From Candidatus Woesebacteria bacterium (GTDB taxonomy: Bacteria > Patescibacteriota > Saccharimonadia > Saccharimonadales > EFPC-124), in contig JASFQB010000002.1 in the NCBI GenBank assembly GCA_050115675.1, forward strand, positions 132,376 to 196,375: a DNA stretch of 64,000 nt, written 5' to 3'. The position numbers and the translations under genes were made by a program. Positions within the stretch are counted from its first letter, which is position 1. Every line of letters starts with the position of its first letter. The notes below the pieces were generated by a model. That model had not been told where the DNA came from, did no database searches, and was given only the letters and a program-made list of their open reading frames with translations. Below, piece after piece: positions 3,836-41,955 of the stretch.

Positions 3836-3837
3836 TG

Positions 3838-8105: not shown

Positions 8106-8111
8106 CGAACC

Positions 8112-9950: not shown

Positions 9951-10018
9951 ATGACAGATCATAATAGCTGAGTTGAAGCTATTCTTATACTCCTGTTTCT
10001 AAGATATACTATCAACAT

Positions 10019-12411: not shown

Positions 12412-13244
12412 AAAGCAAAATCCAACTATTCCAAGACCAGCAAGTACGAACCGCATGGAACGTAGACAAAGAAGAATGGCTTTTGTCTGTAGTTGATGTT
12501 ATAAGAATACTAACCGACCAGCCAGACCACCAATCCGCACGAAACTATTGGAAGGTGCTAAAAAATAGAATACAAAAAGAAAGTGGCCAACCGGTTACAA
12601 AACGTAACCAGTTGAAAATGCGAGCCGAAGATGGCAAAATGCGCCTAACCGATGTGGCGAATCAACAAGAGTTATTGCGCATCATTCAATCAGTACCAAG
12701 TAAAAAAGCAGAGCCGTTCAAGCAATGGCTAGCGCAGGTCGGTGCAGATAGATTGGATGAAATTCAAAATCCAGAACTGGCCATAGATCGCGCCATGATA
12801 TACTATCGCAACTTAGGCTACGACGAGGGCTGGATAAATGCTTGCTTGCAGTCCATACAATTCCGCAAAGAACTTACCGACGAATGGAAACGCACTGGCG
12901 TCAAAGAAGGCCAAGAGTACGCAATGCTTACTAATATTATGGTACAGGGTTGGTCCGGTAAAACAATCAAAGATTATAAGCAGTTCAAGGGGCTCAAAAA
13001 AGAAAACTTACGCGACAATATGACGAGCCTTGAGCTTGCGCTCAATATCTTGGCAGAAACTACGGCAACAGAGCTATCAAAAACTAGTGATCCGCAGGGC
13101 GTCGCTGCCCAAAAAGACATATCTCAACGCAGCGGGAAAATAGCTGGTGATGCGCGTAAGAATATCGAAAGCCAAACTGGACAGAGTGTCATAAGCCCAC
13201 AAAATGCCAAAGATTTACGATTAGGCGAAGGCAATAGAAAATGA
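12408..13244 (+). CDS. Bro-N domain protein (phage antirepressor-like) inserted in the R-M operon
   Basis: [29 protein letters not shown] fits Bro-N. ATGA overlaps at both ends. Flanked by a duplicated hsdM 3' end. Confidence 0.6.
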
Positions 13245-13298
13245 GCAAGATAAACAGTCCAAGGAGCGATATAGACAAAATTGTGGCGGAGATCGAGG
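13245..13298 (+). repeat. Duplicated copy of the hsdM 3' terminus (insertion scar)
   Basis: 13262-13298 aggagcgatatagacaaaattgtggcggagatcgagg vs 12361-12397 (36/37). Looser similarity extends back to 12344/13245. Confidence 0.8.
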
Positions 13299-13299
13299 C

Positions 13300-14307: not shown

Positions 14308-15479
14308 GCCAGCCTGGCTTTTTAGAAAAGTTGCTTGATGATGCCGACGTAGAGCGGCTACCTTTAGGTGATGTAGTCAAACTTCAGAGAGGCAAAAGGC
14401 TTGTGCGAAGTCAACTGGATGAAGTCGGTAAATATGCTGTATACCAAAATAGCATGAAGCCGCTGGGTTATTATCACGAAAGTAATGTTGAGGCCGATAC
14501 AACATTTATTATATGCGCTGGCGCAGCAGGTGAGATTGGCTATAGTGATGTCAATTTTTGGGCAGCGGATGATGTTTACATCTGCTTAACGCCAAATAAT
14601 CTATTGAGTAGGTATTTATACCATTTTTTGTTGGACCAAAAGAGTACTATTCTATCTCAGGTTCGCAAGGCAAGTATTCCGCGTCTATCCAAAACAGCGA
14701 TTGAAAAGCTGCAAATCCCAATCCCATGCCCAGATGATCCGGAAAAATCGTTGGCTATTCAAGCAGAGATTGTACGTGTGCTAGACTTGTTTACAGAGCT
14801 AGAAGCAGAGCTAGAAGCAGAGCTAGAAGCAGAGCTAGAAGCACGTAAAAAGCAATACAACCACTACCGCGATCAACTTCTCACTTTTGGGCCAAGTGTT
14901 GAACGGATCAGCCTAGCTGATGTTGGCAAAATATCTATGTGCAGACGTATATTTAAAAACGAAACTTCACCCGATGATGGGATTCCTTTTTTCACAATTG
15001 GCACATTCGGGAAAAAGGCAGCTTTCTACATATCCAGAGAACGATTTGGGACCTACAAGAGTAAGTACTCATATCCTAAAGTTGGAGATATTCTTTTGTC
15101 TGCTTCAGGAACGATAGGAAGGCGAGTCATATTTGATGGCTCAGATTCATACTTTCAAGATTCAAATATTATCTGGATTGATAATGATGAAAGTAAAGTT
15201 CTAAATAAATTCCTCTTCTACCTTTACGAAATTATCACATGGGAGACTGAGGGCGGAACAATTAAACGGCTTTACAACCGCAATATTAAAAAAATTGAAA
15301 TACCAGTTCCGCACCTCAAAGAACAGGCGCGAATCGTAGGCATTCTTGATAAGTTCGACACACTGGCCAATTCAATTAGTGCGGGTCTACCGAGAGAAAT
15401 TGAACTGCGCCAAAAACAATATCGATATTACCGAGATTTATTATTTAGTTTTTTAACAAAAAAGGAACAAAATGACTGA
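14304..15479 (+). CDS. hsdS: Type I restriction-modification system, specificity subunit
   Basis: Two variable target-recognition regions are separated by the central conserved helix ([13 protein letters not shown]...[15 protein letters not shown]). Distal conserved region [15 protein letters not shown]...[16 protein letters not shown]. Confidence 0.85.
14796..14843 (+). repeat. Perfect 12-bp x4 tandem repeat (gagctagaagca = ELEA) in the hsdS central helix
   Basis: Read directly: four identical in-frame units at 14796-14843. Confidence 0.95.
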
Positions 15480-18400
15480 AGAAACAAACCCCATTGCTGA
15501 ATCTAAACGGTTCGTCATATTAGACAAGTACGTCAAACAATGGGTGCCGGTCGAGAGCTATCAAAGCGAGGCGGATCTAGAGCGCGAGCTCGTTAAGGAC
15601 TTAATGAGCCAAGGCTATGATTTGGCTGCTGAAATAACCTCTCCTGAGGTGATGCTTGGCAATGTGCGTTTGCAGTTGCAGTCGCTGAACGATGTGCAGT
15701 TTACGGATGCGGAGTGGGCTCGCTTTGTAGAAACGTATCTGGATAAGCCAAGCGACACTATTACCGATAAAACCAGAAAGATTCACGACGATCACATTTA
15801 TGATTTTGTGTTTGACGACGGCCGCATACAAAACATACAACTCCTGGACAAGGCAAATATATCACGCAATAAAGTGCAAGTTATAAAGCAGTTTGAGCAA
15901 ACAGGATCACATGCTAATCGCTACGACGTGACCATTCTCGTTAATGGGCTGCCATTGGTGCAGATCGAGCTAAAAAAGCGTGGCGTTGCTATACGCGAGG
16001 CCTTCAACCAGGTACACCGCTACAGCAAGGAAAGCTTCAACAGCGACCAGTCGTTGTACAAATACTTGCAGCTATTCGTCATCTCCAATGGAACTGACAC
16101 TCGCTACTTTGCCAACACTACCAGGCGCGACAAGAACAGTTTTGATTTTACTATGAACTGGGCAACTGTCGACAACAGCCCTATTAAAGATCTCAAAGAT
16201 TTTACCGCCACGTTCTTTCAGCCGCGCACACTCCTAAAAGTATTGCTGCATTACTCGGTATTTGATGCGAGAGACACCCTGCTTATAATGCGCCCTTATC
16301 AGATTGCCGCAACCGAGCGTATCATCTGGAAGGTCAATAGTTCGCATCAGGCAAAAACCTGGAGCAAGCCAGAGAGCGGCGGTTTTGTCTGGCACACAAC
16401 TGGATCTGGCAAAACATTGACCAGCTTTAAGGCGGCACGCATGGCAACCGAACTTGATTGTATAGACAAGGTGTTTTTTGTGGTTGACAGAAAAGATTTG
16501 GACTACCAAACCATGAAAGAATACCAGCGTTTCTCGCCCGACAGTGTGAACGGATCTGACAGTACTGCAGGACTTAAACGTAATCTAGACAAAGACGACA
16601 ACAAGATCATCGTTACCACCATCCAAAAGCTCAATAATCTGATGAAGGGCGAGGCTGACTTGCCCGTATATGACCAACAAGTAGTGTTCATTTTTGATGA
16701 ATGTCACCGTAGCCAGTTTGGTGAGGCGCAGAAGAATCTACGAAAGAAATTTAGGTCATACTACCAGTTTGGTTTTACTGGCACGCCAATAATGCCAGAA
16801 AACGCTTTGGGCGCGGAGACGACTGCTAGTGTGTTTGGTCGAGAGCTACACTCTTATGTGATAACCGATGCAATCCGTGACGAGAAGGTGCTGAAGTTTA
16901 AAGTTGACTACAACGACGTACGCCCTAAATTTAAGAGTGTGGAGTCCGAGCAAGACTTGAAGAAACTCACTGCTGCCGAGAACAAGAAAGCACTCTTACA
17001 CCCTGAAAGGATCCAGGAGATATCGCAGTATATTCTAAGTAATTTCCGCCAAAAAACCCACCGAACATATGGGGCAAACAAGGGGCTCAACGCAATGTTT
17101 GCAGTGAGCAGTGTAGAGGCCGCCAAGCTGTATTATGAGATGCTAAACAAGTTGCAAGCCAACAGCGATAGGACTCTCAAGATCGCCACAATATTCTCAT
17201 TTGCGGCCAATGAAGAGCAGGACGCCATTGGCGACATCCAAGATGAAAGCTTCGACGTGTCTGCGATGAACAGCAGTGCCAAAGAGTTTTTGAACTCCGC
17301 AATCAATGACTACAACGCATACTTCAAGACCAACTTCAGTGTGGATAGCAAAGGATTCCAGAACTATTACCGTGACCTTGCTAAGCGCGTTCAATCTCGG
17401 GATATTGATCTGTTGATTGTAGTGGGCATGTTCCTTACGGGTTTTGATGCACCAACGTTAAACACGCTTTTTGTGGACAAAAATCTGCGGTATCACGGTC
17501 TGATGCAAGCGTTCTCGCGCACCAACCGGATTTATGACGCAACGAAAACATTCGGCAATATTGTCACCTTCAGAGATCTCGAAAAGGCCACGATCGATGC
17601 GATCACTCTGTTCGGCGATAAAAATACCAAGAATGTGGTGCTGGAAAAAAGCTACAAAGAGTACATGGACGGTTACAATGACGTTGTAACTGGTGAAGCG
17701 CGTCGTGGTTTTATTGATGTAGTGGCTGAACTTGAAGACCGGTTCCCCGACCCAGCCAATATTGTGTTGGAGGCCGACAAGAAGGCTTTTGCTAAATTGT
17801 TTGGCGAATACCTGCGCGCAGAGAATATCCTCCAGAACTACGACGAATTTGCCAGCTTAAAAGAGTTACAAGACACGGACATAACCAACGATTTGGCACT
17901 AGAGACCTTCAAAGAAAAACACCACTTGACTGATGAAGATCTTGAGATTATGCAAAAAGTGCACATGCCTTCTGAGCGCAAAGTGCAGGACTATCGGTCA
18001 ACGTACAATGATATCCGCGATTGGTTGCGCGAAAAGAAGAATTCTAATGATCAGAGCGAGTCCGCGATTGATTGGGATGATGTAGAGTTTGAGGTTGACC
18101 TCCTGAAATCACAGGAAATCAATCTGGACTACATACTTGAGCAGGTATTTGAAAAGAACAAGAAGATCAAGGACAAGTCAGCTCTTGTTGATGATGTACG
18201 CCGAATAATCAGGTCTAGCATTGGCAACCGGGCAAAAGAAGGCCTGATAGTTGACTTTATAAATCAGACGGATCTTGACCAAATACCAGATAAGGTTGGT
18301 ATTATTGAATCTTTCTTCAAATACGCACAAGTAGAGCAACAACGGGAGGCTGAAGAGCTGATCGCTGCCGAAAACCTAAACGACGAAGCCGCCAGGCGGT

Positions 18401-18573
18401 ATATAAACACCTCGATTAAGCGCGAGTATGCAAGCGATAACGGCACCGAGCTAAACACCCTTCTGCCCAAGATGAGCCCCCTCAATCCAGAATACCTAAC
18501 GAAAAAACAAAGTGTTTTTCAAAAAATAGCGGCATTTGTCGAGAAGTTTAAGGGGATTGGCGGGAGACTTTAA
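15472..18573 (+). CDS. hsdR: Type I restriction enzyme, R (helicase-endonuclease) subunit
   Basis: N-terminal nuclease region ([20 protein letters not shown] = D...E-x-K), Walker [15 protein letters not shown]-type [15 protein letters not shown], later helicase motifs ([19 protein letters not shown]). Confidence 0.9.
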
Positions 18574-27118: not shown

Positions 27119-28504
27119 ATGACACCATTGCATGCACACCCAAAAGAAGATGAATCAATAATTCCTCCGTATGCTACTAATGCGGGTCACGTTGTAATAC
27201 CCAGAAACAACATCCCAGACACTGGCCTGGAACCCGAGACCGCTTACCGCGTCTTAAAGGACGAGCTCGCTCTGGATGGCAATGCCCACATGAACCTGGC
27301 CACGTTTGTCACCACCTGGATGGAACCCGAAGCCACCAAGCTGATGGCCGAAACGTTCGACAAAAACATGATCGACAAAGACGAATATCCGCAAACCGCG
27401 GCCATTGAGCAGCGTTGCATTAATATTTTGGCCGATCTGTGGAACATTCCAAAAGAAAATAACGTTATGGGCACCTCCACAATTGGTTCGTCCGAAGCTT
27501 GCATGCTGGCCGGCATGGCGCTTAAGTGGCGTTGGCGCCAAAAACGCGGTATTAAACCAGACCAAGCCCAAAGGCCAAACCTGGTCATGGGGATTAATAC
27601 GCAGATTTGCTGGGATAAGTTCTGTCGATACTGGGATATAGAAGCTCGGCAAGTTCCCATGGAACCGGGCAGCTATCACTTGCAGCCCGACAAAGCCATC
27701 GAGCTATGCGACGAAAACACCATTGGCGTAGTGGCAATTATGGGCAGCACCTTTGACGGCAGTTACGAGCCGGTCAAAAAGATCTCCGAAGCTCTAGATA
27801 AATTGCAACAAGAAAAAGGCTGGGATGTTTCCATTCACGTTGATGCCGCCAGCGGCGGTTTTGTGGCGCCGTTTATTCAGCCGGATCTGGAATGGGATTT
27901 CCGCGTGCCGCGCGTGGCGTCAATTAACACATCGGGCCACAAATATGGCTTGGTCTACCCAGGTTTGGGCTGGGTGGTTTGGCGCGAGTTTAACGATCTG
28001 CCCAAAGACCTGATTTTTTACGTTAACTATCTTGGTAGCCAAATGCCAACCTTTGCCATTAACTTTTCGAGGCCGGGCAACACCATTCTGGCGCAGTATT
28101 ACAACTTTTTGCGATACGGCCGCGAGGGCTACCGCGAAATCCAGCAGCAATGTCAAGACAACGCCGTTTACTTGTCGGGCGAGCTAGAAAAAACCGGTAA
28201 GTTTGATTTGCTATCTAAGGGCGACGAGCTGCCCGTATTTGCCTTTAAGCTCAAAGATAACATCACTAAATACTCCGTGTTTGATTTGTCCGAAAAGCTA
28301 CGCACCCGTGGCTGGCAAGTGCCCGCCTATACTTTGCCCGCCAATCTGGAGAAAACAGCAGTTTTGCGTGTTGTGGTCAAGCAAAACTTTAGCCGCGATA
28401 TGACCAACTTGCTGTTGGCCGACATTAAAAAGTTTGTCGAAGAACTAGAAAACACAAGTAGTAAACCTAAGCCGCCAGAGCAAATGTTTAATCATGCTCG
28501 GTAA
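27119..28504 (+). CDS. gadB: Glutamate decarboxylase (PLP-dependent)
   Basis: NLATFVTTWMEPEA, DKDEYPQTAAIEQRC, and INTSGHKYGLVYPGLGWVVWR (PLP lysine) are collinear with bacterial GadA/B. Confidence 0.9.
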   Translation: MTPLHAHPKEDESIIPPYATNAGHVVIPRNNIPDTGLEPETAYRVLKDELALDGNAHMNLATFVTTWMEPEATKLMAETFDKNMIDKDEYPQTAAIEQRCINILADLWNIPKENNVMGTSTIGSSEACMLAGMALKWRWRQKRGIKPDQAQRPNLVMGINTQICWDKFCRYWDIEARQVPMEPGSYHLQPDKAIELCDENTIGVVAIMGSTFDGSYEPVKKISEALDKLQQEKGWDVSIHVDAASGGFVAPFIQPDLEWDFRVPRVASINTSGHKYGLVYPGLGWVVWREFNDLPKDLIFYVNYLGSQMPTFAINFSRPGNTILAQYYNFLRYGREGYREIQQQCQDNAVYLSGELEKTGKFDLLSKGDELPVFAFKLKDNITKYSVFDLSEKLRTRGWQVPAYTLPANLEKTAVLRVVVKQNFSRDMTNLLLADIKKFVEELENTSSKPKPPEQMFNHAR

Positions 28505-28513
28505 ATAAACGTT

Positions 28514-29884
28514 ATGAACAAGAGTATAAAAAAGATTTCTACCCTAACCTTAATGCTGCTTACCATTGCGGCCATTGCTAACTTGCGTGGCCTGCCAAGC
28601 AATGCCGAACAAGGTATGCAGCTGATTTTTTACCTCGGCCTGGCAGCGGTATTGTTTTTAATCCCAACTGCGCTGGTGTCGGCCGAACTGGCCACCGGCT
28701 GGAAAGGCGGTATTTTTGATTGGGTCAAGCAAGCGTACGGCGATCGTTGGGGTTTTGTGGCTATTTGGTTGCAGTGGATTCAGAATGTGGTGTGGTATCC
28801 AACTGTTTTGGCGTTTTTGTCTGGCGCTTTAGCCTACTTTATCAACCCTAACCTCAGCTCAAACGGCCCGTTTATTGCCATTGTAATTTTGGTGGTTTAT
28901 TGGGGTTCAACCATTATTTCTCTTCGCGGTATTAAATTTGCCGCAATATTTAGTAATACTGGCGTGCTGCTTGGCACCTTGATTCCTGGTGCAATTATTA
29001 TTAGTTTGGGAATCCTATACTTTTTGCAAGGAAGGCCGCCGGCTATAGATATTAACGCCGCAGATATTATTCCAAAAGATATTTCGCTGCCTGTTATGGT
29101 GTTTTTGGTCGGTATGCTGCTTAACTATGCCGGCATTGAAATGAACGCCGTGCACGCTCGCGACATGAAAGATCCCAAAAAGAGCTTTCCGCTCGCAGTA
29201 TTTTTGGCAGCCTTCATTATTGTGTCGTTGTTCATTTTAGCTAGTCTGGCAATTGCGCTGGTTATTCCGGCCGACAAGCTCAGCTTAACCGCCGGCGTGA
29301 TTGACGCTTACAAAATATTCTTTGATGTTTACAATATTGGCTGGGCGGTTTACCCAATGGCAGTGCTGTTGGTGTTTGGTGTAATTGCCGCTGTTATTAC
29401 CTGGATTTCTGGTCCTAGCCGCGGTTTGCTACGAGTGAGCGAAGAAGGCTATTTGCCACGTGTGCTGCAAAAAGTTAATCGTCACGGTGTGCAAAATCGC
29501 ATTTTATTTGTTCAGGGTGTGATCGTGTCGCTACTAGCTCTGCTTTTTGCCTTCCTGCCAAATGTTTCCGGGAGCTATTGGCTGCTAACTGCTATGTCTG
29601 TTCAGTTGTACCTTTTAATGTATATTCTGATGTTCTTGACAGTATTTAAGCTACGAAAAACCCAACCTAACGTCAAAAGAGCTTACAAAGTTCCGGTACT
29701 AATTGCCATTGGTGGCATAGGCCTGTTTACGTCTATTGGCGGTTTTTTACTGGGCTTTGTGCCGCCAGACCTATGGACCGGCTCGACTATAGAATACATT
29801 GCAATCTTAATAGCCGGCATTGTTGCCTTGGGAGTTGGTCCATTCATCTTTTACGCTCTGCGTCGTCCTAGTTGGAAACGTTAG
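28514..29884 (+). CDS. gadC: Glutamate:GABA antiporter (APC superfamily)
   Basis: A 12-TM amino-acid permease starting 10 nt after gadB. The N-terminal pattern LLTIAAIANLRGLP...ALVSAELATGW is typical of GadC-type APC transporters. Confidence 0.75.
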   Translation: MNKSIKKISTLTLMLLTIAAIANLRGLPSNAEQGMQLIFYLGLAAVLFLIPTALVSAELATGWKGGIFDWVKQAYGDRWGFVAIWLQWIQNVVWYPTVLAFLSGALAYFINPNLSSNGPFIAIVILVVYWGSTIISLRGIKFAAIFSNTGVLLGTLIPGAIIISLGILYFLQGRPPAIDINAADIIPKDISLPVMVFLVGMLLNYAGIEMNAVHARDMKDPKKSFPLAVFLAAFIIVSLFILASLAIALVIPADKLSLTAGVIDAYKIFFDVYNIGWAVYPMAVLLVFGVIAAVITWISGPSRGLLRVSEEGYLPRVLQKVNRHGVQNRILFVQGVIVSLLALLFAFLPNVSGSYWLLTAMSVQLYLLMYILMFLTVFKLRKTQPNVKRAYKVPVLIAIGGIGLFTSIGGFLLGFVPPDLWTGSTIEYIAILIAGIVALGVGPFIFYALRRPSWKR

Positions 29885-30652: not shown

Positions 30653-30922
30653 ATGAAGGTTCTAAAATTTGGTGCTGTGTGGTGTAATGGCTGTGTGGTT
30701 ATGAAGCCGCGTTGGGGTCAGCTAGAAAAAGAATTTCCATGGTTGCAAACCGAATTTTACGATTATGATCGCGATAAAGACATGGTTAGAAAATACAATG
30801 TCACTGACGAGCTGCCAATGGTAGTATTTTTAGATAAGCAAGGCAACGAGTTTTTGCGCATAAGCGGCGAAATTAGCAAAGAGAAGATCGTCGAAATTAT
30901 TTTGGCAAATAAGGATAAATAG
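30653..30922 (+). CDS. Thioredoxin-fold protein
   Basis: FGAVWCNGCVVMKP (WCxxC), 89 aa, GGGAGG RBS. Confidence 0.7.
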   Translation: MKVLKFGAVWCNGCVVMKPRWGQLEKEFPWLQTEFYDYDRDKDMVRKYNVTDELPMVVFLDKQGNEFLRISGEISKEKIVEIILANKDK

Positions 30923-30923
30923 A

Positions 30924-32165
30924 ATGCTTAAAATTAAAACTATTTTGGTTTCGTCTGTTGTAGCCTTGTTTGCATTTTTATTTTTGCTAGTGCCGCAAGG
31001 CGTAAACGCTGCAGAGGATACAACTAGCGGTGTAAATATCTATTTGTTTTGGGGTCAAGGTTGTCCGCACTGCGCTAAAGCCAAGCCATTTTTAGAGGAG
31101 TTAGATAAAAACTCGGACAAGATACATCTGTATACTTATGAGGTTTATTACAACTCGCAAAATCAAAAGTTATTTCAGGAAGTCGGGCGAATGTTTAATG
31201 CTTCTTCTGGTGTGCCGTTGATCGTTATTGGGGATAGGACTTTTGTCGGTTATTCTGAGTTGTCTGCGGATGACATAAAAGCGCGCGCAGAAGCTTGCGC
31301 AGAAAGTGTAACTTGTTCTGATAGTGTGGCAAGTGTTGTTGGCGCTCCTAGCGTTTCAAATTCTAACCCGTCGACTGTGGGTCAGGTTGATCAGCAGGAT
31401 TCGGTTGCCGATTATAGTAATAGCGTAAATTTGCCAATATTTGGCGAGATTAGCGTAAGTGACTTTTCTTTGCCTTTGCTTACTGTAGTAATTGCGGCGC
31501 TTGATGGCTTTAATCCGTGTGCGATGTGGGTTTTGCTATTTTTGATAAGCGTACTTTTGGGTATGAATAATCGCAAACGCATGTGGGCACTGGGCGGTTC
31601 GTTTATTGTTGCGTCTGCATTTGTTTACTTTATGTTTTTGACAGCATGGCTGAATATTTTCATGTTTATAGGGGTCGTGTCTTGGGTTAAGGTTTTAATT
31701 GGCATAGTTGCTGTGGCGGCTGGGGGTTATTATCTTTACGATTTTTGTTACAACAAAGCAGGAAGCTGTAAGGTTGCTGGGGGTGGTAGGCGCGAAAAAA
31801 TATTTGCTAAAATTCGTCACATTGCGCACGAAAAAAGTTTTTGGCTGGCAGCAGTCGGAATAGTCAGTTTGGCTTTTGCTGTAAATTTGATTGAGCTAGT
31901 GTGTAGCGCAGGGTTGCCCGCAGTTTATACAAGCATTTTAAGTGGCGCCAACTTGCCAACGTGGCAATACTACGGCTACATATTTTTGTATATGTTGATA
32001 TTTATGGCAGACGATTTGTTTGTGTTTTTTGTGGCAATGTTTACTCTGCAAGTAACTGGGGTTCAAACTAAATATGCCAGGTTCGCACATCTTATAGGTG
32101 GGATTTTAATGCTAATATTGGGAGTGTTATTAATATTCGCACCTCAGCTTTTAATGTTTGGTTAG
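30924..32165 (+). CDS. Exported thioredoxin/glutaredoxin-fold domain fused to a DsbD/CcdA-like membrane domain
   Basis: Signal anchor, FWGQGCPHCAKAKPFL (CxxC). The C-terminal 6-TM part has the ALDGFNPCAMWVLLFL motif, typical of thiol-disulfide electron-transfer membrane proteins. Confidence 0.6.
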   Translation: MLKIKTILVSSVVALFAFLFLLVPQGVNAAEDTTSGVNIYLFWGQGCPHCAKAKPFLEELDKNSDKIHLYTYEVYYNSQNQKLFQEVGRMFNASSGVPLIVIGDRTFVGYSELSADDIKARAEACAESVTCSDSVASVVGAPSVSNSNPSTVGQVDQQDSVADYSNSVNLPIFGEISVSDFSLPLLTVVIAALDGFNPCAMWVLLFLISVLLGMNNRKRMWALGGSFIVASAFVYFMFLTAWLNIFMFIGVVSWVKVLIGIVAVAAGGYYLYDFCYNKAGSCKVAGGGRREKIFAKIRHIAHEKSFWLAAVGIVSLAFAVNLIELVCSAGLPAVYTSILSGANLPTWQYYGYIFLYMLIFMADDLFVFFVAMFTLQVTGVQTKYARFAHLIGGILMLILGVLLIFAPQLLMFG

Positions 32166-32169
32166 TAGT

Positions 32170-32598
32170 ATGAATAAAAGATGTATAGTTGTAATTGCTT
32201 TTTTGGTCATTGGGGCTGTTGCAGTAGTCGCTATTATTGCAAATCAGTCTTCTTGTAATGCCCAGTCTTGCGATTGGCAAGCTGTCGCTGTGGCAGAGGG
32301 GACTGAGATAGAAGCTATCAACGATGACTTAGATTCTGGAGCCTTGCTAGTAGATGTGCGTGCGGCTGAAGAGTTCGCCAAATCTCATGCCTCGAGAGCG
32401 ATAAATCTGCCTTATGATCAGATTATATCTGGCAAGTATCCAACTCAAAATAAAACCACAAAAATTTATTTGTATTGTCACAGCGGGAAGCGTGCAGAAG
32501 CTGCTTTAAATGCGCTAAAACAAGCCGGCTACACGGATGCGAGTAGTCTAATTAGTCTTGACAATTGGCAAAAACTTGGTGGAGAAGTTGTCTGGTAG
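32170..32598 (+). CDS. Membrane-anchored rhodanese-domain sulfurtransferase
   Basis: N-terminal TM. The active-site loop YCHSGKRA (CxxGxR) sits in a rhodanese-like context (LVDVRAAEEF...INLP). Confidence 0.7.
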   Translation: MNKRCIVVIAFLVIGAVAVVAIIANQSSCNAQSCDWQAVAVAEGTEIEAINDDLDSGALLVDVRAAEEFAKSHASRAINLPYDQIISGKYPTQNKTTKIYLYCHSGKRAEAALNALKQAGYTDASSLISLDNWQKLGGEVVW

Positions 32599-33282: not shown

Positions 33283-33397
33283 TACTCTAATTTAAGCAAG
33301 AAGTTAATTTAAGCACAAGCACTATTGACTTGGAACTTACTGATAAATAGAATAGTAAGCAGTAGTGGTAAGAAAATAATAAGAAAAGAAGGGCGAA

Positions 33398-34984
33398 ATG
33401 CTATATAAAAAAAGACGTGCAAGTTTCTCGTTAAGCGCGGTAGTAATGTCGAGTGTTTTGTTGGCAATAGCATTGCCAATGCACTCTGCGGGGGCGGCAC
33501 GTTTGGCTAGCTGTGCCGTTCCTTCTATTAATTATGGCACTGCTACTATGCAGCTTAATGTTAGCGAAGCTGGCGATTACAAGATCTGGACTCATATGTA
33601 TGCGCCAGACTCAACTAACGATTCATTTATGCTTGAGCTGGATGGAAACAGTTGTTTTGTGGTTGGTAATGGCGGCGTACAGAATGGTGCCTGGGCTTGG
33701 GTTGGGCACAAGGACGGCAACACTACAAATTATGTCACTGCCACCCTCTCTAGTGGTAACCATACGATAAAACTTATTGGCAGTGAGCCTGGAGTCAAAA
33801 TTGACCGCGTTTTGGCATCTGCCGACCAGAGCTGCGTGCCTACTGGTACGGGCGATAACTGCATGACTGTCTCTGACACTACAAAGCCAGTGGTTAATAT
33901 AACCTCGCCCGAGGATGCCGCTGCCGTTAAGGGCGTTGTGACTATAAAGGCCGATGCTACAGACGATACAGGTATCGCCAAGGTGGAGTTTTACGTACAG
34001 GGCAATTTAGTGAGTACGGTCACTTCTAGTCCATACGAATATAGCTGGGATACTTCTGAACTGGTAAACCAGATATATACTGTAACTACCAAGGCCTACG
34101 ATGCTGAGGGCAATGTCAGCAGTGACTCAATAACTCTTGCCCTAGAAAATGAAACCGCACAAACCGTTAGTGCGGCATCGAACCTGACATCAGTAGCGAC
34201 GTCTACTAACAGTGTTGAGCTAAAATGGGATGGAAGCGCAGAAGCAGTCTCTTACCGAGTAGCTCGCAACGGCGTTGTTATCGTAACGACAAATCAGACT
34301 ACATACACTGACAACACCGCAGTATCCGGCGAAACCTATGAATATACTGTTGTTGCTGTAGGGATTAATGGTGAGGTGTCTGATTCTTCGAGTGTCTCTC
34401 AGGTTACAATGCCAACCCCGCCGGCCGGTGACACTGTAGTGCCAACTACGCCAGCCGATCTGACGGTAGCCGCTCAGGGTACCAATCAGATAAATCTAAG
34501 CTGGACGGCCAGCACCGATGATGTGGGCATTAGCGGCTACGATATCTACCGGAACTCGGACGAGGACAAAACCTTCAGAAAGGTTGCTACAACTACAGAA
34601 ACAAGCTATGGCGACAGCGATGTTTATGACAATACGACATTCACCTATTACATCATTGCCAATGATGCGGCTGGTAATGCTAGCGAACCATCGGCTCAGT
34701 CTGCGGCAACTACCCCGTCGATTCGTAGTAGAAATGTAAGTTCCGTGAGGGGCACAATACACGATTCACATGGTAAGCCTATTGCTGGAGCTAGAGTTGC
34801 GGTATGGGTTGGGTCGCGACGCTACCATGCAACCACCAACTGGCGCGGGCGCTATGTAATCACGAATGTACCTTCTGGTAAGTATGAGGTTTCCTTTGGT
34901 AAGGGCGGTTACGAGCGGACATCGAGCTATGTAAGCTTGAGATCGCATCTAACTCGTTGGCTAGACGCCAAACTAAGGTATTAA
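33398..34984 (+). CDS. Secreted multidomain surface protein (CBM-like, Ig-like, 2x FN3, CarboxypepD_reg-like)
   Basis: Signal peptide. CBM-like GDYKIWTHMYAPDSTNDSFMLELDG. Ig-like TKPVVNITSP...VKGVVTIKADATDDTGIAKVEFYV. Two FN3-like units (LTSVATSTNSVELKWDG; LTVAAQGTNQINLSWTAS). C-terminal GKPIAGARVAVW...TTNWRGRYVITNVPSGKYEV. Confidence 0.65.
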   Translation: MLYKKRRASFSLSAVVMSSVLLAIALPMHSAGAARLASCAVPSINYGTATMQLNVSEAGDYKIWTHMYAPDSTNDSFMLELDGNSCFVVGNGGVQNGAWAWVGHKDGNTTNYVTATLSSGNHTIKLIGSEPGVKIDRVLASADQSCVPTGTGDNCMTVSDTTKPVVNITSPEDAAAVKGVVTIKADATDDTGIAKVEFYVQGNLVSTVTSSPYEYSWDTSELVNQIYTVTTKAYDAEGNVSSDSITLALENETAQTVSAASNLTSVATSTNSVELKWDGSAEAVSYRVARNGVVIVTTNQTTYTDNTAVSGETYEYTVVAVGINGEVSDSSSVSQVTMPTPPAGDTVVPTTPADLTVAAQGTNQINLSWTASTDDVGISGYDIYRNSDEDKTFRKVATTTETSYGDSDVYDNTTFTYYIIANDAAGNASEPSAQSAATTPSIRSRNVSSVRGTIHDSHGKPIAGARVAVWVGSRRYHATTNWRGRYVITNVPSGKYEVSFGKGGYERTSSYVSLRSHLTRWLDAKLRY

Positions 34985-34997
34985 AAAGGCAAGGGAT

Positions 34998-35456
34998 ATG
35001 GAAGACAAAACTATGCAATCACCTCAAATGTCAATGCAAGAGCAGTCTAAGGCCCCAGGTAAAAACCCGTTGCGCGTGGCGCTACTTATCGCGGTTATAA
35101 TAGTCGCGATAGCCAGTATTATTGCACTGGCGTATGTAATAGTGAATTTTAATGGCGTTGAGACAGTGACTGACGAAACCTTTGGCACGGTTACCATAAC
35201 AGACGATGGCACCACCCCTTCTGCTATAACTATAAAGAGCGGTGAAAGTGTGACTTGGATCAATGATAGTTCTAGTTCTCATTCTTTAGAGATAACATCA
35301 CCAAATATTCCTAGGGAGCTTGAAGGGTTTGGTAGTGACGAACCCATTTTGCAGGAAGAGTCCTATAGTTTTATTTTCGAAGCTGCAGGTACTTTTACTT
35401 ATGATGATCCAAGTAACCCTAGCCTTATTCAGGGAACTATAGTTGTTGAAGAGTAA
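34998..35456 (+). CDS. Membrane-anchored cupredoxin-like small protein
   Basis: TM anchor, then ITIKSGESVTWINDSSSSHSLE...GTFTYDDPSNPSLIQGTIVV (cupredoxin-like beta-sandwich pattern). Confidence 0.45.
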   Translation: MEDKTMQSPQMSMQEQSKAPGKNPLRVALLIAVIIVAIASIIALAYVIVNFNGVETVTDETFGTVTITDDGTTPSAITIKSGESVTWINDSSSSHSLEITSPNIPRELEGFGSDEPILQEESYSFIFEAAGTFTYDDPSNPSLIQGTIVVEE

Positions 35457-35727
35457 AAAAATAAAGGAAAGGCTAGGATAGTATCTTGAATATCATAAAA
35501 AGGTTCCTTACCTATATCAGGCACAACCCATTAGAATCAGCTGCAGCTTTGAGTGTATTTGTGGCTCTTGTTTTGGGAGGTATTGTATTTGTTGCTAGTC
35601 GAGCGGCTTCGTTTTATGCCTATGCGGATGCTTCGCAGGCTAGCGTGGCAGATGGTGCAGAAATTGTCTCGGACTCTTCTGCTATTGGCGGCAAAGCAAT
35701 TCAGTTTGCTAGTGCCTCTACTCAGCC
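35445..35727 (+). repeat. 283-bp direct repeat, copy 1 (RBS, TTG start and first 78 codons of the GH46 gene)
   Basis: No mismatch found on reading against 36550-36832 (offset 1105). The copy starts in the last 12 nt of the cupredoxin-like gene (gttgaagagtaa). Confidence 0.9.
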
Positions 35728-36466
35728 AAGTAATAATGATAATGATAATGATACGGTTGATTTGAGTGACCCGGTTAAAAAAGATATTGCAATGCAGTTG
35801 GTATCGAGTGCAGAAAATTCTTCGCTTGATTGGAAAGCACAATATTCATACATTGAAGACATTGGAGACGGACGTGGTTACACAGCAGGCATCGTTGGGT
35901 TCTGTACTGGATGTGGCGACCTGCTCAAGGTTGTAGAAGTATATGACGGTCTTTCTCCGAATAACGTTCTAAGTAAGTACATTCCTGCTCTTAGAAAAAT
36001 TGGTAGCTGGGACGATACGCATGATGGCCTTGATCCTAACTTTACTAAGGACTGGAAAACTGCTGCGAATGATGAGAAGTTTCGGCAAGCACAGGACATA
36101 GAACGCGATCGAGTATATTTTGATCCCGCTGTCGAGCAGGGTAAAGCTGATGGCTTACGCGCTTTAGGCCAGTTTATATATTATGACGCGCTTGTTATGC
36201 ATGGCCCAGGAGATGACTCGGTCAGCTTCGGCGGTATCCGTGCTACAGCCATGAAAAAAGCGAAAACACCAGCACAAGGTGGCGATGAAGCGACTTATCT
36301 TAATGCCTTTTTAGACGCTCGCGCTGCAGCTATGCGTACCGAGGAAGCCCATAGCGACACTACCCGTGTAGATACCGAACAACGTGTCTTTTTAGATGAC
36401 GGCAACTTCAACTTAGACACACCGCTTAGCTGGAAGGTATACGGTGACAGCTATTCTATTAAGTAA
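35486..36466 (+). CDS. GH46 chitosanase (Streptomyces CsnA-like)
   Basis: VSSAENSSLDWKAQYSYIEDIGDGRGYTAGIVGFC, ERDRVYFDPAV, LRALGQFIYYDALVMHGPG and AHSDTTRVDTEQRVFL are collinear with actinobacterial GH46. TTG start. Confidence 0.85.
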   Translation: MNIIKRFLTYIRHNPLESAAALSVFVALVLGGIVFVASRAASFYAYADASQASVADGAEIVSDSSAIGGKAIQFASASTQPSNNDNDNDTVDLSDPVKKDIAMQLVSSAENSSLDWKAQYSYIEDIGDGRGYTAGIVGFCTGCGDLLKVVEVYDGLSPNNVLSKYIPALRKIGSWDDTHDGLDPNFTKDWKTAANDEKFRQAQDIERDRVYFDPAVEQGKADGLRALGQFIYYDALVMHGPGDDSVSFGGIRATAMKKAKTPAQGGDEATYLNAFLDARAAAMRTEEAHSDTTRVDTEQRVFLDDGNFNLDTPLSWKVYGDSYSIK

Positions 36467-36549
36467 GGTACAAAACTAAAATTGACATATATTATTGAAA
36501 GCTGTAGTTTTTATTGGAGTAGGGCTTGCCTCTTTAGCGGTCGGATCGG

Positions 36550-36832
36550 GTTGAAGAGTAAAAAAATAAAGGAAAGGCTAGGATAGTATCTTGAATATCA
36601 TAAAAAGGTTCCTTACCTATATCAGGCACAACCCATTAGAATCAGCTGCAGCTTTGAGTGTATTTGTGGCTCTTGTTTTGGGAGGTATTGTATTTGTTGC
36701 TAGTCGAGCGGCTTCGTTTTATGCCTATGCGGATGCTTCGCAGGCTAGCGTGGCAGATGGTGCAGAAATTGTCTCGGACTCTTCTGCTATTGGCGGCAAA
36801 GCAATTCAGTTTGCTAGTGCCTCTATCCAGCC
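36550..36832 (+). repeat. 283-bp direct repeat, copy 2 (5' module of the GH18 gene)
   Basis: See copy 1. This copy retains the orphan gttgaagagtaa remnant of the cupredoxin gene end. Confidence 0.9.
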
Positions 36833-37778
36833 GGAAACAGGTGGTGGAACTACGGGCACTGCCTATCTTAATCCGTATAGCCTTGGTTTGGCGCCATATA
36901 ACTATATTCCATGGGAAGGCTCACTCACTGATTTTAAGAATGCTTCTGGAGTAAGTAACCAAGTGGCAGCGTTTATTATCAGCTCTGGCGGTTGTACGCC
37001 TGCCTGGGATGGTGATTCATCTTTGGGTCTGAGTAGTTCTAGGTCTAATACCATTGCAAGCGAGATATCTAATGTCAGAAACTCTGGTGGTGATGTTATG
37101 ATATCTTTGGGCGGTGCAAGCGGCAACGAGCTTGCCTACTCGTGCAGCAATGCTTCTCAGTTAAAACAAGCTTACATAAGTATTCTAGACAAATATGGCA
37201 TAGACAAGATCGACTTTGACATCGAGGGATCGAATGCTTCAAAAACTTCTGCAAACGCAACTCGTGCAGAGGTAGTTGCTGCTTTGCAACAAGAGCGAGA
37301 CCTAAAGGTTTGGGTGACATTGGCGGTTGAAACTGACGGCCTGACATCAGAAGGCCTTAGCGTAGTTAAACAAATGCGAGAAAAAGGTGTAGCCTTGTCT
37401 GGTATAAACATCATGGCGATGGACTATGGGACCAACACCAAGGATATGGGTGCTGCAGCGGTATCCGCGGCTAACAGTACATTTAGTCAGCTAAAATCAA
37501 TTTATCCAGAAAGTAGCGACTCAGACATCTGGAAAGCTATAGGCGTAACCGCGATGATAGGCATAAATGATACTGAGCCAGAAGCATTTACGCTTGCAAA
37601 TGCCAAGACACTCAAGGATTACGCGGTGCAAAAAGGCATAGGTATGCTTAGCTACTGGAACGTTGCTCGTGACGTGGCCTGTAGCGGCAATAAAGCAATT
37701 CTGAGCGACTCGTGCAGTGGTGTTACGCAAAGCAAATACGACTTTGCTAATGCACTAAACATCTCATCAATTAATTAG
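36591..37778 (+). CDS. GH18 chitinase-like glycoside hydrolase
   Basis: Catalytic DKIDFDIEG (DxxDxDxE). MISLGGASG, AMDYG and SYWNVARD fit the GH18 TIM-barrel strands. N-terminal 78 aa are identical to the GH46 protein. Confidence 0.8.
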   Translation: MNIIKRFLTYIRHNPLESAAALSVFVALVLGGIVFVASRAASFYAYADASQASVADGAEIVSDSSAIGGKAIQFASASIQPETGGGTTGTAYLNPYSLGLAPYNYIPWEGSLTDFKNASGVSNQVAAFIISSGGCTPAWDGDSSLGLSSSRSNTIASEISNVRNSGGDVMISLGGASGNELAYSCSNASQLKQAYISILDKYGIDKIDFDIEGSNASKTSANATRAEVVAALQQERDLKVWVTLAVETDGLTSEGLSVVKQMREKGVALSGINIMAMDYGTNTKDMGAAAVSAANSTFSQLKSIYPESSDSDIWKAIGVTAMIGINDTEPEAFTLANAKTLKDYAVQKGIGMLSYWNVARDVACSGNKAILSDSCSGVTQSKYDFANALNISSIN

Positions 37779-37803
37779 AATAAAATAGCTTTTTAGGTTT
37801 GAT

Positions 37804-39090
37804 ATGCAGGTTTTTAGAAGATTGGCTTTGTCAACGTTTTTAGCGATAGCTTTTGTGCTAATTAATCCTGGGCAAGTGCTAGCAACCAGCGGTGTAGCTT
37901 GGCCGGTTCAGGGCAATGTGTCGGCAATGTATGAAGAATCATGTAGCTCTTTATACACTCATGATAAAGGTGTAAAAATAGCTAGCAACTTAAAGGGTTT
38001 ACCCGTCTATGCTGCACAGGATGGACTTGTTACTGCTAGCGGGTATAGTTTGTTTTATGGCAGGTATATAATAATCAGCCATGCTAACGGCTGGTCTACA
38101 ATGTACGGAAACTTAGCTGATGTTTATCGTGGGTCTGGTGTAGTCACCCAGGCCGAATTAATCGCAACTACAGGTGTAAAACACCGAGGTAGTACCGAAG
38201 GTCTATTGTATTTTGAAGTCCGCAAAAACGGCATAGCGCAAAATTTTAATAAAGCTATGTCATGCGGGCAAACTATCTATGATCGCACGGCGATAAGATT
38301 TAATTTTGCTGATCTTTATGGTTTTCCTCCAGAATACGAAGAAGTCACAAACGGCGGCGGCACGCGCATAACCGGCAACAACGCATACCTTGACGTTTCG
38401 TCTACCGGCCAGGTTTACGCCTGGAACACTACCAACTTTGGCGGGTCGCCATATTCGTACAATGGCCGATTTGTGGATGCCAAAGTTACGCCAGGTGCTT
38501 TGGGCTACTGGTTGCTAACTTCTGCCGGCCAAGTCTTTACCTATGGTAACGCTCACCATTTTGGCGACGAGCCCCAGGGCTTTAGCGGCGAAATCGTCGC
38601 CATGGCAGCCCAACCAAACAGCCAGGGCTACGCCATGGTCAGCAGTCTTGGCCAAGTTTATACATATAATATGACCAATTACGGCGGATCGCCCACCACT
38701 AATATTGGCAAATTTGTAGACATCGAGCTAACGCCGGACGGCCAAGGTTACTGGCTACTAACTTCTGCGGGCGAAATATTCGCCTACGGCAACGCCCAAA
38801 ACTTTGGCGACCAGCCCAAATATTTCGTAAAAGCCATGGTGGCCATGTCGCTCACACCCAGCGGCAACGGCTATGTAATGGCTAGCAAAACCGGCGAGGT
38901 ATTTGCCTACGGCGACGCGCAAGTAGTGGGCACCCCGCCAACCGGCCACAGCGCCACATCAGAAATAACAGACATAAGCTACAGGCAAGACGGCTATCCA
39001 GGCTACCTAATGATAACCTCGGACGGTAAACATTACGGACATAACTATCCGTTTATCGATGACCCAACTGGGTTTAGTGGATTTTTTTAG
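37804..39090 (+). CDS. Secreted degenerate M23 (LytM-like) domain protein with six C-terminal ~40-aa propeller-like repeats
   Basis: M23 scaffold YTHDKGVKIA...PVYAAQDGLV...IIISHANGWSTMYGNL...GLLYFEVRKNG. The usual HxxxD Asp and the HxH histidines are substituted. Repeats follow GYWLLTSAG(Q/E)(V/I)F(T/A)YGNA..FGD. Confidence 0.65.
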   Translation: MQVFRRLALSTFLAIAFVLINPGQVLATSGVAWPVQGNVSAMYEESCSSLYTHDKGVKIASNLKGLPVYAAQDGLVTASGYSLFYGRYIIISHANGWSTMYGNLADVYRGSGVVTQAELIATTGVKHRGSTEGLLYFEVRKNGIAQNFNKAMSCGQTIYDRTAIRFNFADLYGFPPEYEEVTNGGGTRITGNNAYLDVSSTGQVYAWNTTNFGGSPYSYNGRFVDAKVTPGALGYWLLTSAGQVFTYGNAHHFGDEPQGFSGEIVAMAAQPNSQGYAMVSSLGQVYTYNMTNYGGSPTTNIGKFVDIELTPDGQGYWLLTSAGEIFAYGNAQNFGDQPKYFVKAMVAMSLTPSGNGYVMASKTGEVFAYGDAQVVGTPPTGHSATSEITDISYRQDGYPGYLMITSDGKHYGHNYPFIDDPTGFSGFF

Positions 39091-40142: not shown

Positions 40143-41955
40143 CTAGGTAGTTAGATCGATTGCATGCTCCGTAGAGTCTTTGCCAAGGTTGCCTAAATCC
40201 TCGACATGCCTTAGTTGTTTACTCCATAATTTTGCATAAGTGCCATTTTTTGCTAGCAGTTCGTTGTGTGTGCCATCTTCTACGCACTTGCCTTTTTCTA
40301 TTACTATAATTCTGTCCATTTCTGACAGGGTGCTTAGGCGATGAGCGATTACGATTGCGGTTTTGCCTTTTAATATTCTAGAAAATGAGTCTTTAATAAT
40401 CTGCTCACTTTCGCTGTCTAGCGCGCTAGTAGCCTCGTCTAAAACTATAATTGGCGAGCGTTGCAAAACAGTTCTGGCTATTGCGATACGCTGCTTTTGG
40501 CCACCGCTAAGTTTAACGCCTCGTTCGCCAACAATGCTGTCCAATCCATTAGACAGTTGCAGGGTAAATTTTAGCGCGTGGGCGGCATTTAGCGCATCGC
40601 GCACTTCGTCATCTGTGGCGTCGGGGTTAGATAAAGTGACGTTGTCGCGAACGCTAGCATGAAACAGTAAGGGCTCCTGTGGAACGTAGCCTATTTGCTT
40701 GCGTAAATTAGCTTGTTTAAGGTCTTTAATATTAATTCCATCCAGTAAAATCTTGCCGCTGTCTACGTCGTTAAAGCGCAGCAGTAGTTTAGCTAAGGTG
40801 CTTTTGCCAGCGCCGCTTAAGCCCACGATGCTCACTTTTTGTTCTGCTGGTATATCTAAAGAAAAGTCTGTAAAAACTGGCTTTATATCTCTGTCTTTGT
40901 CGTAGGTGAACGTAATTTTGTCAAAGGTAATATTGCCGTGCGTATTTTTTAGAGTTTTTGGTTCGGCGGGGTCAGTGATGATGTTTTTTCTGTCTAAAAT
41001 TTCGAATGCTGGAATGATTTTATCGATTAGATCGTCGTGTTGGTCTAGGTCATCCGATAATGTATAGATACCCGCAAGAATTGTTGAAGTATATGTTACT
41101 ACCAGAACTGCGGCTGTAATGTCTATAAAGCCACCACTCATGCGACAAACGGTTAGCCACAGTAGTACCAAAAAGAATATTACAGTTATGACTTCGCGCA
41201 AAGCGATAAACTTAGCTTGCATGGTATAGCGTACAGCAAATGCATTTCCTTCTTGCTTTGAACCTTGCTTCACCTGTCTTGAGCACGTAGCTTCTTGAGC
41301 TGTAGCTTTTACCGCCAAAATATTAGATACAAAATCGGCCATGCGACCAGAATTGCGCTTGTAAATCTCACGGGATTTAGAGCGGTACGGTGTAATTGCG
41401 TGCGAGGCCCATATTAGATATATAGCTTGCGTTGTGCTAAGTACTAAGGCCACTAGCCCAAGCCATAAATCAAGATAAAATATTACGCACAGCGGAAAAA
41501 TAATGCTAAGAACTGTGTTTTAGGTAGCGATCGCGCAGAGTTCTCACGAATTGCACGCAGCTGTCTACGTATTGCCTAGTGGCGGTAGTTAAACAGCCAG
41601 ATAAATTCGAATGAAAGTAGTCTAAGTCGGCCGACATCAAATGCGAAAAGTAATTGCCAGTAATGTTGCGGTATGCTTTGTTTTCTCCAAGCATACCAAT
41701 ATACTTAATTAGAGGAGAGAGTGCGCCTAAGGTGAGTGAGAATCCAGCATAGATAAACACTGCTTTTTGGGCTTCGTCAAAATTGTTTTTAGAAAGACCG
41801 GTAATTATCAAGCTAATTGCAATTGGTAGGGCAATTAATTTGCACATACGGGCTGCGATTTGCATAGCAAAAGAAGCCTGCACCTGCCAGGATTGACCGT
41901 AGGTGTGCCACAAATGGCTATATACTAATTTGTATTTATCTGTACCTCGTAGCAC
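40143..41955 (-). pseudogene. ABC exporter (fused TMD-NBD, MsbA-like) with a frameshift at a homopolymer
   Basis: NBD motifs GLSGAGKST (Walker A), LSGGQKQR (signature), IIVLDEATS (Walker B). The TMD is split between ORFs 41506..41955 and 40143..41453. The frame continues (VLSIIFPLCVIFYLDLW) after a shift at the A4 run (T-run 41517-41520 on +). Confidence 0.75.

Follow-up and report, generated by a model that had tools for sequence, protein, structure and literature searches.

The region at positions 33398-39090 of the 64,000-nt stretch of Candidatus Woesebacteria DNA analysed here (contig JASFQB010000002.1; this whole stretch is called the window in what follows) carries five consecutive genes on the + strand, and it is probably, at a rough probability of 0.6, a conserved surface cassette of Patescibacteria, mostly of the Saccharimonadales type, that degrades chitosan and chitin for nutrient scavenging. 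The cassette consists of a multidomain surface protein, a cupredoxin-like protein and at least one leader-tagged cargo enzyme, with the first two genes as its constant core. In the window, the cargo is a glycoside hydrolase family 46 (GH46) chitosanase followed by a GH18 chitinase-type enzyme. The main feature of the locus, which was absent from an earlier note on this DNA, is the identical leader duplicated on the two enzymes, together with the cassette architecture. The earlier note had described five consecutive same-strand genes for exported, glycan-acting proteins, all with a signal or anchor sequence; its coordinates for all five agree exactly with our list of open reading frames (ORFs), and the Pfam families and hydrophobic N-termini described below bear out the remainder of that description. 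The features of the region are the following.

33325-33353, + strand: promoter-like site TTGACT-17-TAGAAT with 10 of 12 consensus matches, 45 nt upstream of gene 1; candidate operon promoter
33398-34984, + strand: gene 1, secreted multidomain surface protein, 528 aa (Pfam; predicted signal peptide)
34998-35456, + strand: gene 2, cupredoxin-fold protein, 152 aa, with a predicted N-terminal membrane anchor and without a type-1 copper site (Pfam; 1pcs alignment)
35445-35720, + strand: direct repeat copy 1, 276 nt, covering the end of the cupredoxin gene, the ribosome-binding site (RBS), the TTG start and GH46 codons 1-78
35486-36466, + strand: gene 3, GH46 chitosanase, 326 aa (Pfam; 1chk alignment; Foldseek)
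36550-36825, + strand: direct repeat copy 2, 276 nt, identical to copy 1, lying before and inside the GH18 gene
36591-37778, + strand: gene 4, GH18 chitinase-type enzyme, 395 aa (Pfam; PDB matches)
37804-39090, + strand: gene 5, exported protein with a degenerate M23 domain and six repeats, 428 aa (Pfam; alignments)

The gaps between the five genes measure 13, 29, 124 and 25 nt, and the GC content of the genes and their GC at third codon positions (GC3) are like those of the rest of the window (GC of 0.42-0.49, compared with 0.434 overall). Export was called by a heuristic Kyte-Doolittle scan for a charged n-region followed by a hydrophobic h-region. In all five proteins, two to four Lys/Arg residues precede a 19-residue hydrophobic stretch (Kyte-Doolittle means 1.7-3.2) within the first 45 residues, which by this heuristic predicts a signal or anchor sequence on each.

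The surface-protein alignment was run against one genome per species, which gave 41 loci, and local profiles were then run on these loci. The order surface protein, cupredoxin-like protein, leader-tagged enzyme was found in L001, L003, L005, L007, L010, L011, L014, L015, L016, L020, L031, L050 and L051, and two further loci (L037 and L039) have the enzyme on the upstream side of the core. The cupredoxin gene adjoins the surface-protein gene in about 21 loci. A complete cassette with a leader-tagged gene was present in about 16 of about 46 distinct Saccharimonadales or Patescibacteria loci, and about 30 of the 46 have a leader-tagged gene somewhere in their flanks. Many distant genomes repeat the order of the first three gene types, and their grouping is more than chance. 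The relatives of the cassette come almost entirely from metagenome-assembled genomes (MAGs) of Saccharimonadales or of the 'Patescibacteria group', and the gene content of the window itself, which includes a type I restriction-modification system, a CHASE histidine kinase, a glutamate decarboxylase with a permease, a class A penicillin-binding protein and LigD, suits a small-genome bacterium.

The cargo varies around this core. GH46 stands alone after the cupredoxin gene in L001, L003 and L005, which are contigs with close relatives of the window GH46, and in L007 a leader-GH6 gene is placed between the cupredoxin gene and leader-GH46. In L050, a leader-GH18 that is 82% identical to the window GH18 comes directly after the cupredoxin gene, and in L051 the cargo position is taken by one 647-residue leader-GH18-GH46 fusion (P0138), which argues that the two enzymes act on the same substrate. 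Other cargos are GH114 and GH16 (L031) and beta-helix proteins (L018, L022, L037 and L039), and several cargo domains have no Pfam match. The Saccharimonadia contig L031 carries six leader-tagged genes around the core at positions 1822-11872 and looks like a full multi-enzyme locus.

We examined both window enzymes at the level of domains, catalytic residues and nearest relatives. Gene 3 matches Glyco_hydro_46 (PF01374) over the full length of the Pfam profile (1-210 of 210, 1.4e-97). In its product, a disordered Asn/Asp linker (78-88) joins the leader (residues 1-78) to the catalytic domain (92-325), and the catalytic domain aligns with residues 4-236 of the Streptomyces N174 chitosanase CsnN174 (1chk, E = 1.3e-111) with one single-residue indel, so that 'almost collinear with CsnA', as the enzyme had been described, is an apt wording for the catalytic domain. 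Glu110, Asp128 and Thr133 align with Glu22, Asp40 and Thr45 of CsnN174, which are the catalytic acid, the base and the residue that positions the water. Across a 40-sequence alignment, Glu110, Asp128, Arg130, Thr133 and Asp145 are invariant, and we take these conserved positions to include the equivalents of Arg42, Thr45 and Asp57 in the numbering of the N174 enzyme. An AlphaFold model built on this alignment, with a mean predicted local distance difference test score (pLDDT) of 83.4, has a lysozyme-like two-lobe fold and was matched by Foldseek to 1chk with a TM-score of 0.93, a root-mean-square deviation of 1.7 Å and 71% identity. GH46 appears to be catalytically competent as judged by these residues. 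Over its catalytic domain, identity to actinobacterial chitosanases is 71-81%; it is 72-81% for those of Sphaerisporangium, Dactylosporangium, Microbispora, Nonomuraea and others, and reaches 78-81% for Sphaerisporangium and other actinobacterial proteins. The 'actinobacterial flavour' earlier ascribed to the cluster is thus upheld for GH46; for GH18, no actinobacterial donor is evident. A recent transfer of the GH46 gene from a high-GC donor was considered and rejected, as its GC and GC3 match the window (a GC content of 45-46%, like its genome).

Gene 4 matches Glyco_hydro_18 (PF00704) in Pfam with 4.4e-11 and 43.4 bits, above the cut-off of 29.6, and its whole catalytic domain aligns with solved chitinases in the PDB, namely 9buf ('Exochitinase 1', 9e-60) and the Pyrococcus furiosus chitinase domain 2dsk (1.8e-38), in agreement with the chitinase-type assignment made before. 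The protein consists of a 78-residue leader identical to that of GH46, a Gly/Thr linker and the catalytic domain, in which the GH18 motif DxxDxDxE reads D205-K-I-D208-F-D210-I-E212. Among 30 sequences, Asp210 and Glu212 are invariant and Asp208 is nearly so, and GH18 likewise appears to be catalytically competent. On alignment, the catalytic residues are hence kept in both enzymes, as Glu/Asp/Thr in GH46 and as DxxDxDxE in GH18. The closest relatives of the window GH18, at 52-83% identity, are unnamed metagenome proteins with the same leader, and the named chitinases (of Chromobacterium, Ralstonia, Burkholderia and some actinomycetes) are only about 40-46% identical to it.

The leader is a module of its own. 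In the AlphaFold model of GH46, its helix spans residues 15-41, and its hairpin, with strands at 59-62 and 70-73 and a pLDDT of about 74-81, comes next, ahead of the disordered linker. In diverged members, the helix is followed by a conserved AA[GST] and by the consensus F..EAESGT....ATvVsD..ASGGKAlQF, and then by a linker rich in Pro/Thr, Gly or Asn/Asp. No match to the leader was found in Pfam or NCBIfam. A type IV pilin-like signal, to which a conserved P-L-E before the helix might have pointed, was rejected, given the lack of a Gly at -1 and of any pilin family match. A word-indexed search with a six-sequence leader alignment returned nothing at E <= 0.01, but an exhaustive profile search of 1.84 billion representative proteins did find members: 1,461 clusters reach E <= 1e-3, 133 of them E <= 1e-10, and the leader is matched almost always at the N-terminus, in proteins of 340-400 residues. 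Among the 98 top full-length matches, Pfam assigned the cargo to Beta_helix (8), GH16 (5), GH114, GH26 and Metallophos (3 each) and GH12, alginate lyase and GH99 (2 each), with single cases that include GH6, GH5, Spherulin4, polysaccharide lyases, a GDSL lipase and GH18. The few named members are entered as 'Patescibacteria group bacterium' or lie on contigs among the Saccharimonadales loci.

The two core genes were also examined. Gene 1 has Pfam matches to Big_7 (5.5e-20, aa 164-230), fn3 (7.6e-08) and CarboxypepD_reg (1.3e-13, aa 449-526), and its two FN3-type modules lie at aa ~255-340 and ~351-435; an FN3 module resembles the FnIII of Bacillus chitinase A1 (1k85, 2e-11). The N-terminal domain (aa 37-165), which we call surfN, is beta-rich and contains Cys, and in about 40 homologues it begins directly after the signal peptide at a conserved 'AAC'. 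It had no family match in Pfam or NCBIfam and no PDB sequence match, the best being GH115_C at E = 0.0097. Of the earlier description as a surface protein with a carbohydrate-binding module (CBM), Ig and FN3 parts, the Big_7 and FN3 modules were recovered and the CBM was not confirmed. Lipoprotein anchoring of this protein seems the less likely option, since an AxA signal-peptidase-I site accounts better for the conserved 'AAC' than a lipobox does. We also considered a split CBM, in which the leader hairpin would supply two missing strands of surfN, and largely rejected it: surfN follows a signal peptide or linker in about 50 proteins and also occurs without any leader gene nearby. In three loci (L033:6270-8657, L036:2142-4400 and L044:7914-10052), a leader-like segment and surfN are found in one polypeptide, hundreds of residues apart. 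This distance counts against the split-CBM idea, and the shared polypeptide apparently links the leader and surfN functionally. Gene 2 has the cupredoxin fold that had been proposed for it (Cupredoxin_1, 1.1e-07), though three of the four copper ligands are lost: in the alignment with plastocyanin 1pcs, the first His is kept and the others are replaced (Cys by Asp, His by Ser and Met by Ile), and the Cys ligand is also absent in 13 homologues. Judged by its ligand positions, the gene 2 product is not a blue-copper (type-1) protein.

Under the reading of the locus as a scavenging cassette, the GH46 endo-chitosanase and the GH18 chitinase would be displayed at, or released from, the cell surface. 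Both would cut beta-1,4-linked polymers of glucosamine and N-acetylglucosamine (GlcN and GlcNAc), that is, chitosan and the partly deacetylated chitin of fungal walls and necromass, and cleavage at or near the surface would yield oligomers for uptake. For the surface and cupredoxin-like proteins, a reasonable guess is substrate binding or enzyme tethering. This reading has ecological support, as a passage in PMC9530719, citing Kindaichi 2016, reports that GlcNAc is taken up by filamentous Saccharimonadia, and deadwood Patescibacteria MAGs express chitinase and mannanase (PMC11613949).

Several points weigh against this reading or against parts of it. Promoter-like sites are no more numerous in the region than expected from shuffled sequence, and co-transcription of the genes as one unit is thus putative. 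The leader helix may be an uncleaved anchor or else a cleavable signal peptide. The roles suggested for the surface and cupredoxin-like proteins are drawn from their linkage to the enzymes. No GlcN or GlcNAc transporter or catabolic gene was found in the 64-kb window, and the feeding step is thus one that we infer. Finally, Pfam has no match for about half of the leader cargos, and some of the cargo families (GH114, Spherulin4, alginate lyase, beta-helix) are ones typically seen in exopolysaccharide depolymerases, so that the cassette family could serve for matrix penetration rather than for feeding.

This last point leads to the alternative that survives best, in which the cassettes are matrix or capsule depolymerases, comparable in their action to phage tail depolymerases, for reaching or holding a host surface or for moving through biofilm, with nutrition being secondary. 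The depolymerase-type cargos of relatives, with GH114, Spherulin4, alginate lyases and many beta-helix proteins, are what this alternative would predict, and so are the predicted placement of the enzymes at the cell surface by the leader and the adhesin-like Ig/FN3 modules of the surface protein. It has to contend with the window cargo, a chitosanase and a chitinase; to our knowledge, neither chitin nor chitosan is a bacterial matrix polymer. Moreover, cargos of the families GH6, GH5, GH26, GH12 and GH16 suggest the glycans of plant or fungal walls as targets, and the reports of GlcNAc uptake (in the passage of PMC9530719 cited above) and of chitinase expression (PMC11613949) in Patescibacteria also speak for nutrition. 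Overall, depolymerization is a possible but rather unlikely function, which competes reasonably well for the cassette family at large and fits the cargo of the window less well.

Much less probable is the cell-wall attack that the earlier note had put beside feeding, with GH46 and GH18 acting as muramidase-like enzymes on the peptidoglycan of a bacterial host, to attack or remodel it, and an M23 peptidase cutting the peptide cross-links. GH46 does belong to the lysozyme-like fold class, and Foldseek matched its model, though only weakly (E = 5e-3), with two type VI effector-immunity entries, 4noo and 4nso. Gene 5 does have an M23-family domain (Peptidase_M23, 9e-17, aa 54-147), and members of the Candidate Phyla Radiation (CPR), to which the source organism belongs, are known for epibiotic life on other bacteria (PMC11613949). 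However, alignments to 6muk and 3slu, and to a lysostaphin sequence, showed that the active site of this domain is substituted, with GVD changed to GVK (Asp to Lys), YxHL to YGNL (catalytic His to Asn) and HLH to LLY, the first His being unaligned. Of the active-site residues, the domain has thereby lost the Asp, the catalytic His and both HxH histidines, and its best named matches are the non-catalytic LytM factors SpoIIQ, DipM, EnvC and ActS. As the zinc-binding and catalytic residues are gone, gene 5 is, by these alignments, a non-catalytic LytM-type protein and not a peptidase. Nor was a homologue of it found in any related cassette locus, and we conclude that it is a neighbour outside the conserved cassette. 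Furthermore, GH46 shares 71% identity with a characterised chitosanase and has retained the conserved active-site residues, GH18 keeps the chitinase motif and has chitinases as its nearest solved relatives, and none of the cargos found at the corresponding position in relatives (cellulase, beta-glucanase, GH114 and beta-helix proteins) is of a known peptidoglycan hydrolase family. Of the two halves of the earlier proposal, the feeding toolkit is therefore the better supported, and the host-cell-wall half is not supported.

The remainder of gene 5 bears on its earlier designation as an M23-like propeller protein, of which the M23 domain was recovered and the propeller was not confirmed. Its C-terminal half (aa ~176-428, positions 38329-39087) is made up of six tandem beta-rich repeats of about 41 residues each, with the consensus GYw..tS.G.vF.YGnA..fG..P, which matched no curated family in Pfam or NCBIfam. 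A single-sequence AlphaFold model was all-beta with a pLDDT of 37.6, too poor for a fold assignment. In L007, the public gene-call record has an entry for a Peptidase_M23 protein, with faint hits to FG-GAP, at a distance of 7 kb from the cassette.

Self-protection, in which a membrane-proximal chitosanase would detoxify antimicrobial chitosan, as has reportedly been proposed for CsnA of Streptomyces lividans, is improbable: the closeness of GH46 to the CsnA-type subfamily and its predicted position near the membrane would suit it, but it leaves unexplained the paired chitinase, the GH18-GH46 fusion, the linked surface protein and the other cargo families found in the slot.

We next consider the 276-nt direct repeat, which is perfect. 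Within it lie the final 12 nt of the cupredoxin gene (GTTGAAGAGTAA), the region of the RBS, the TTG start and codons 1-78 of either enzyme gene, and hence GH46 and GH18 have the same RBS and the same first 78 residues. Copy 2 retains a remnant of the stop region of the cupredoxin gene, which shows that the copied segment comprised the cupredoxin end as well as the leader. At its left junction (36549/36550), copy 2 has unique sequence, and the unit between the repeats measures 1105 nt, comprising the leader, the GH46 catalytic part and 83 nt of 3′ flank. The second enzyme would have been added by homologous recombination within the leader, and the arrangement of the 1105-nt unit would result either from one crossover with a circular intermediate or from crossing-over of the unequal kind. 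An independent assembly (L052) is 100% identical over 5295 nt and begins 30 nt before the end of copy 2; this start lies k-1 inside the end of the repeat (k = 31), as expected of an assembly graph at a true repeat. That the duplicated leader is an assembly artefact, with two strain variants carrying GH46 or GH18 after the cupredoxin gene stitched in tandem, is very improbable: both single-cargo arrangements do exist in nature (L001 and L050) and short-read assemblies break at the 276-nt repeat, but the left junction of copy 2 joins the 3′ flank of GH46 and the cupredoxin gene's final 12 nt, a junction that occurs in neither single-cargo arrangement and must therefore be present in the reads, the GH46 and GH18 reading frames are both intact, and tandem leader-cargo pairs are also found in L007, L011, L019 and L031. 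For both enzymes, the start chosen in public gene calls is downstream of the TTG (255 and 370 aa, compared with 326 and 395), and the leader is consequently missing, partly or wholly, from the database entries, which hides the predicted surface location.

A comparison of leaders across genomes gives further signs of recombination and of selection. For leaders on different cargo families, the likeness is much greater within a genome than between genomes, with identities of 0.70 versus 0.38 for the hairpin and 0.45 versus 0.19 for the helix (17 within-genome pairs; 763 hairpin and 724 helix pairs between genomes). In L007 and L011, near-identical nucleotide patches cover the hairpin, with flanks of about 55-60% identity. 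The within-genome likeness fits gene conversion or leader transplantation, and it could also reflect co-evolution with a genome-specific partner. From this we put forward, tentatively and as a doubtful rather than a probable proposal, that the hairpin after the leader helix may be a genome-specific address tag that docks every cargo enzyme on the surface protein and the cupredoxin-like protein, and that the same leader DNA may serve as a recombination handle for the capture and exchange of catalytic domains, perhaps reaching Actinobacteria. The docking part builds on the greater likeness of the hairpin within a genome despite differing cargo, and on its linkage to the two upstream genes in about 16 loci; the part concerning Actinobacteria builds on the identity of GH46 to actinobacterial enzymes, of up to 81%, and on a Microlunatus chitosanase with a decayed leader. 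If true, this would amount to a minimal cellulosome-like enzyme display system of ultra-small bacteria.

The clade of the window GH46 is marked by the sequence GFCTGCGDLL, and in a crude, midpoint-rooted neighbour-joining tree the leader-bearing GH46 proteins form two separate clades, one of which is nearer to the actinobacterial group. The Microlunatus panaciterrae chitosanase (P0036), encoded on a 4.07-Mb contig, is an actinobacterial GH46 that groups with the Patescibacteria clade. It has the GFCTGCGDLL and IGSxDxTH signatures in common with this clade, and a leader hairpin (SPYDASKPTVTGRATV...) is still present in it in decayed form. These features hint at a gene transfer from a Patescibacteria-type donor to an actinobacterium, a possible host group.

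Some neighbouring genes of the window deserve mention. Just upstream of the cassette, on the same strand, positions 30653-32598 encode a thioredoxin, a membrane protein whose N-terminal domain is glutaredoxin/thioredoxin-like, and a rhodanese; such a putative extracytoplasmic disulfide system next to the cassette may matter, as the surface protein and GH18 have conserved Cys pairs. Downstream, an ATP-binding cassette (ABC) exporter on the - strand (40143-41955) is divided into two ORFs, one with 149 aa of the membrane domain and one of 436 aa with the remainder and the ATPase. The split may be a frameshift or a pseudogene, and the same split is found in the independent assembly L052. The type I restriction-modification genes (HsdM, HsdS and HsdR) lie at 10019-18573, with a RhuM-family gene inserted between M and S, and the S gene contains a perfect tandem repeat (12 nt x 4.2, at 14794-14843) that might vary specificity. 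At 27119-29884, a pyridoxal-dependent (glutamate-type) decarboxylase gene adjoins the gene for an amino-acid permease, the layout of an acid-resistance pair, which is unusual for so small a genome.

Patescibacteria make up a large share of bacterial diversity, and their activities outside hosts are debated. The locus would represent a recurrent modular way for these bacteria to arm their surface with glycan-degrading enzymes. It gives a testable handle on whether Saccharibacteria-type cells of soil and sludge scavenge fungal chitin and chitosan, as well as on gene movement between such cells and Actinobacteria. The individual enzymes are ordinary members of the well-known GH46 and GH18 families. 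The plug-in design of the cassette appears to be undescribed: no description of the leader, surfN, the cassette or the two-gene core was found in Pfam, NCBIfam or the literature searched, the coverage of which was incomplete, so that an earlier description is possible.

Compared with known systems, the window GH46 resembles CsnA of Streptomyces N174 (1chk) in its collinear catalytic domain, its 71% identity and its equivalents of Glu22, Asp40 and Thr45, and it differs from CsnA and the actinobacterial GH46 enzymes in carrying the Patescibacteria leader, with helix, hairpin and linker, in place of an ordinary actinobacterial signal peptide. The window GH18 is like the chitinases 9buf and 2dsk in its DxxDxDxE motif and in the alignment across the whole catalytic domain, but it is without the ChtBD3 or CBM2 module that many of its named relatives have. 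The gene 5 product is similar to the degenerate LytM (dLytM) factors EnvC, NlpD, DipM, ActS and SpoIIQ, with an M23 fold in which metal and catalytic residues are replaced, and is distinguished from them by its six C-terminal repeats of about 41 residues and by having neither a coiled coil nor LysM.

The cassette as a whole is comparable to polysaccharide utilization loci (PULs), to surface-anchored clusters of carbohydrate-active enzymes and, loosely, to cellulosomes, where exported glycan-degrading enzymes likewise occur beside a non-catalytic multidomain surface protein, variable enzymes are arranged around a constant core and every enzyme bears a tag that is short, conserved and non-catalytic. 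Neither the five genes nor their neighbours had a match to a SusC/SusD, cohesin or dockerin family. In contrast to those systems, the tag of the cassette is N-terminal, about 35 residues long and next to a hydrophobic helix, and the core includes a copper-less cupredoxin-fold membrane protein. With the polymorphic toxin loci (Rhs/CdiA), the likeness is an evolutionary analogy only and not a functional one: a conserved shared segment acts there as a recombination handle by which a variable functional domain is exchanged, and the 276-nt perfect repeat and the leader patches of high nucleotide identity are its counterpart here. Unlike in Rhs/CdiA, the conserved part of the cassette genes is a leader for export at the N-terminus, the part that varies is an enzyme acting to degrade glycans, and each copy is a complete gene with its own RBS.

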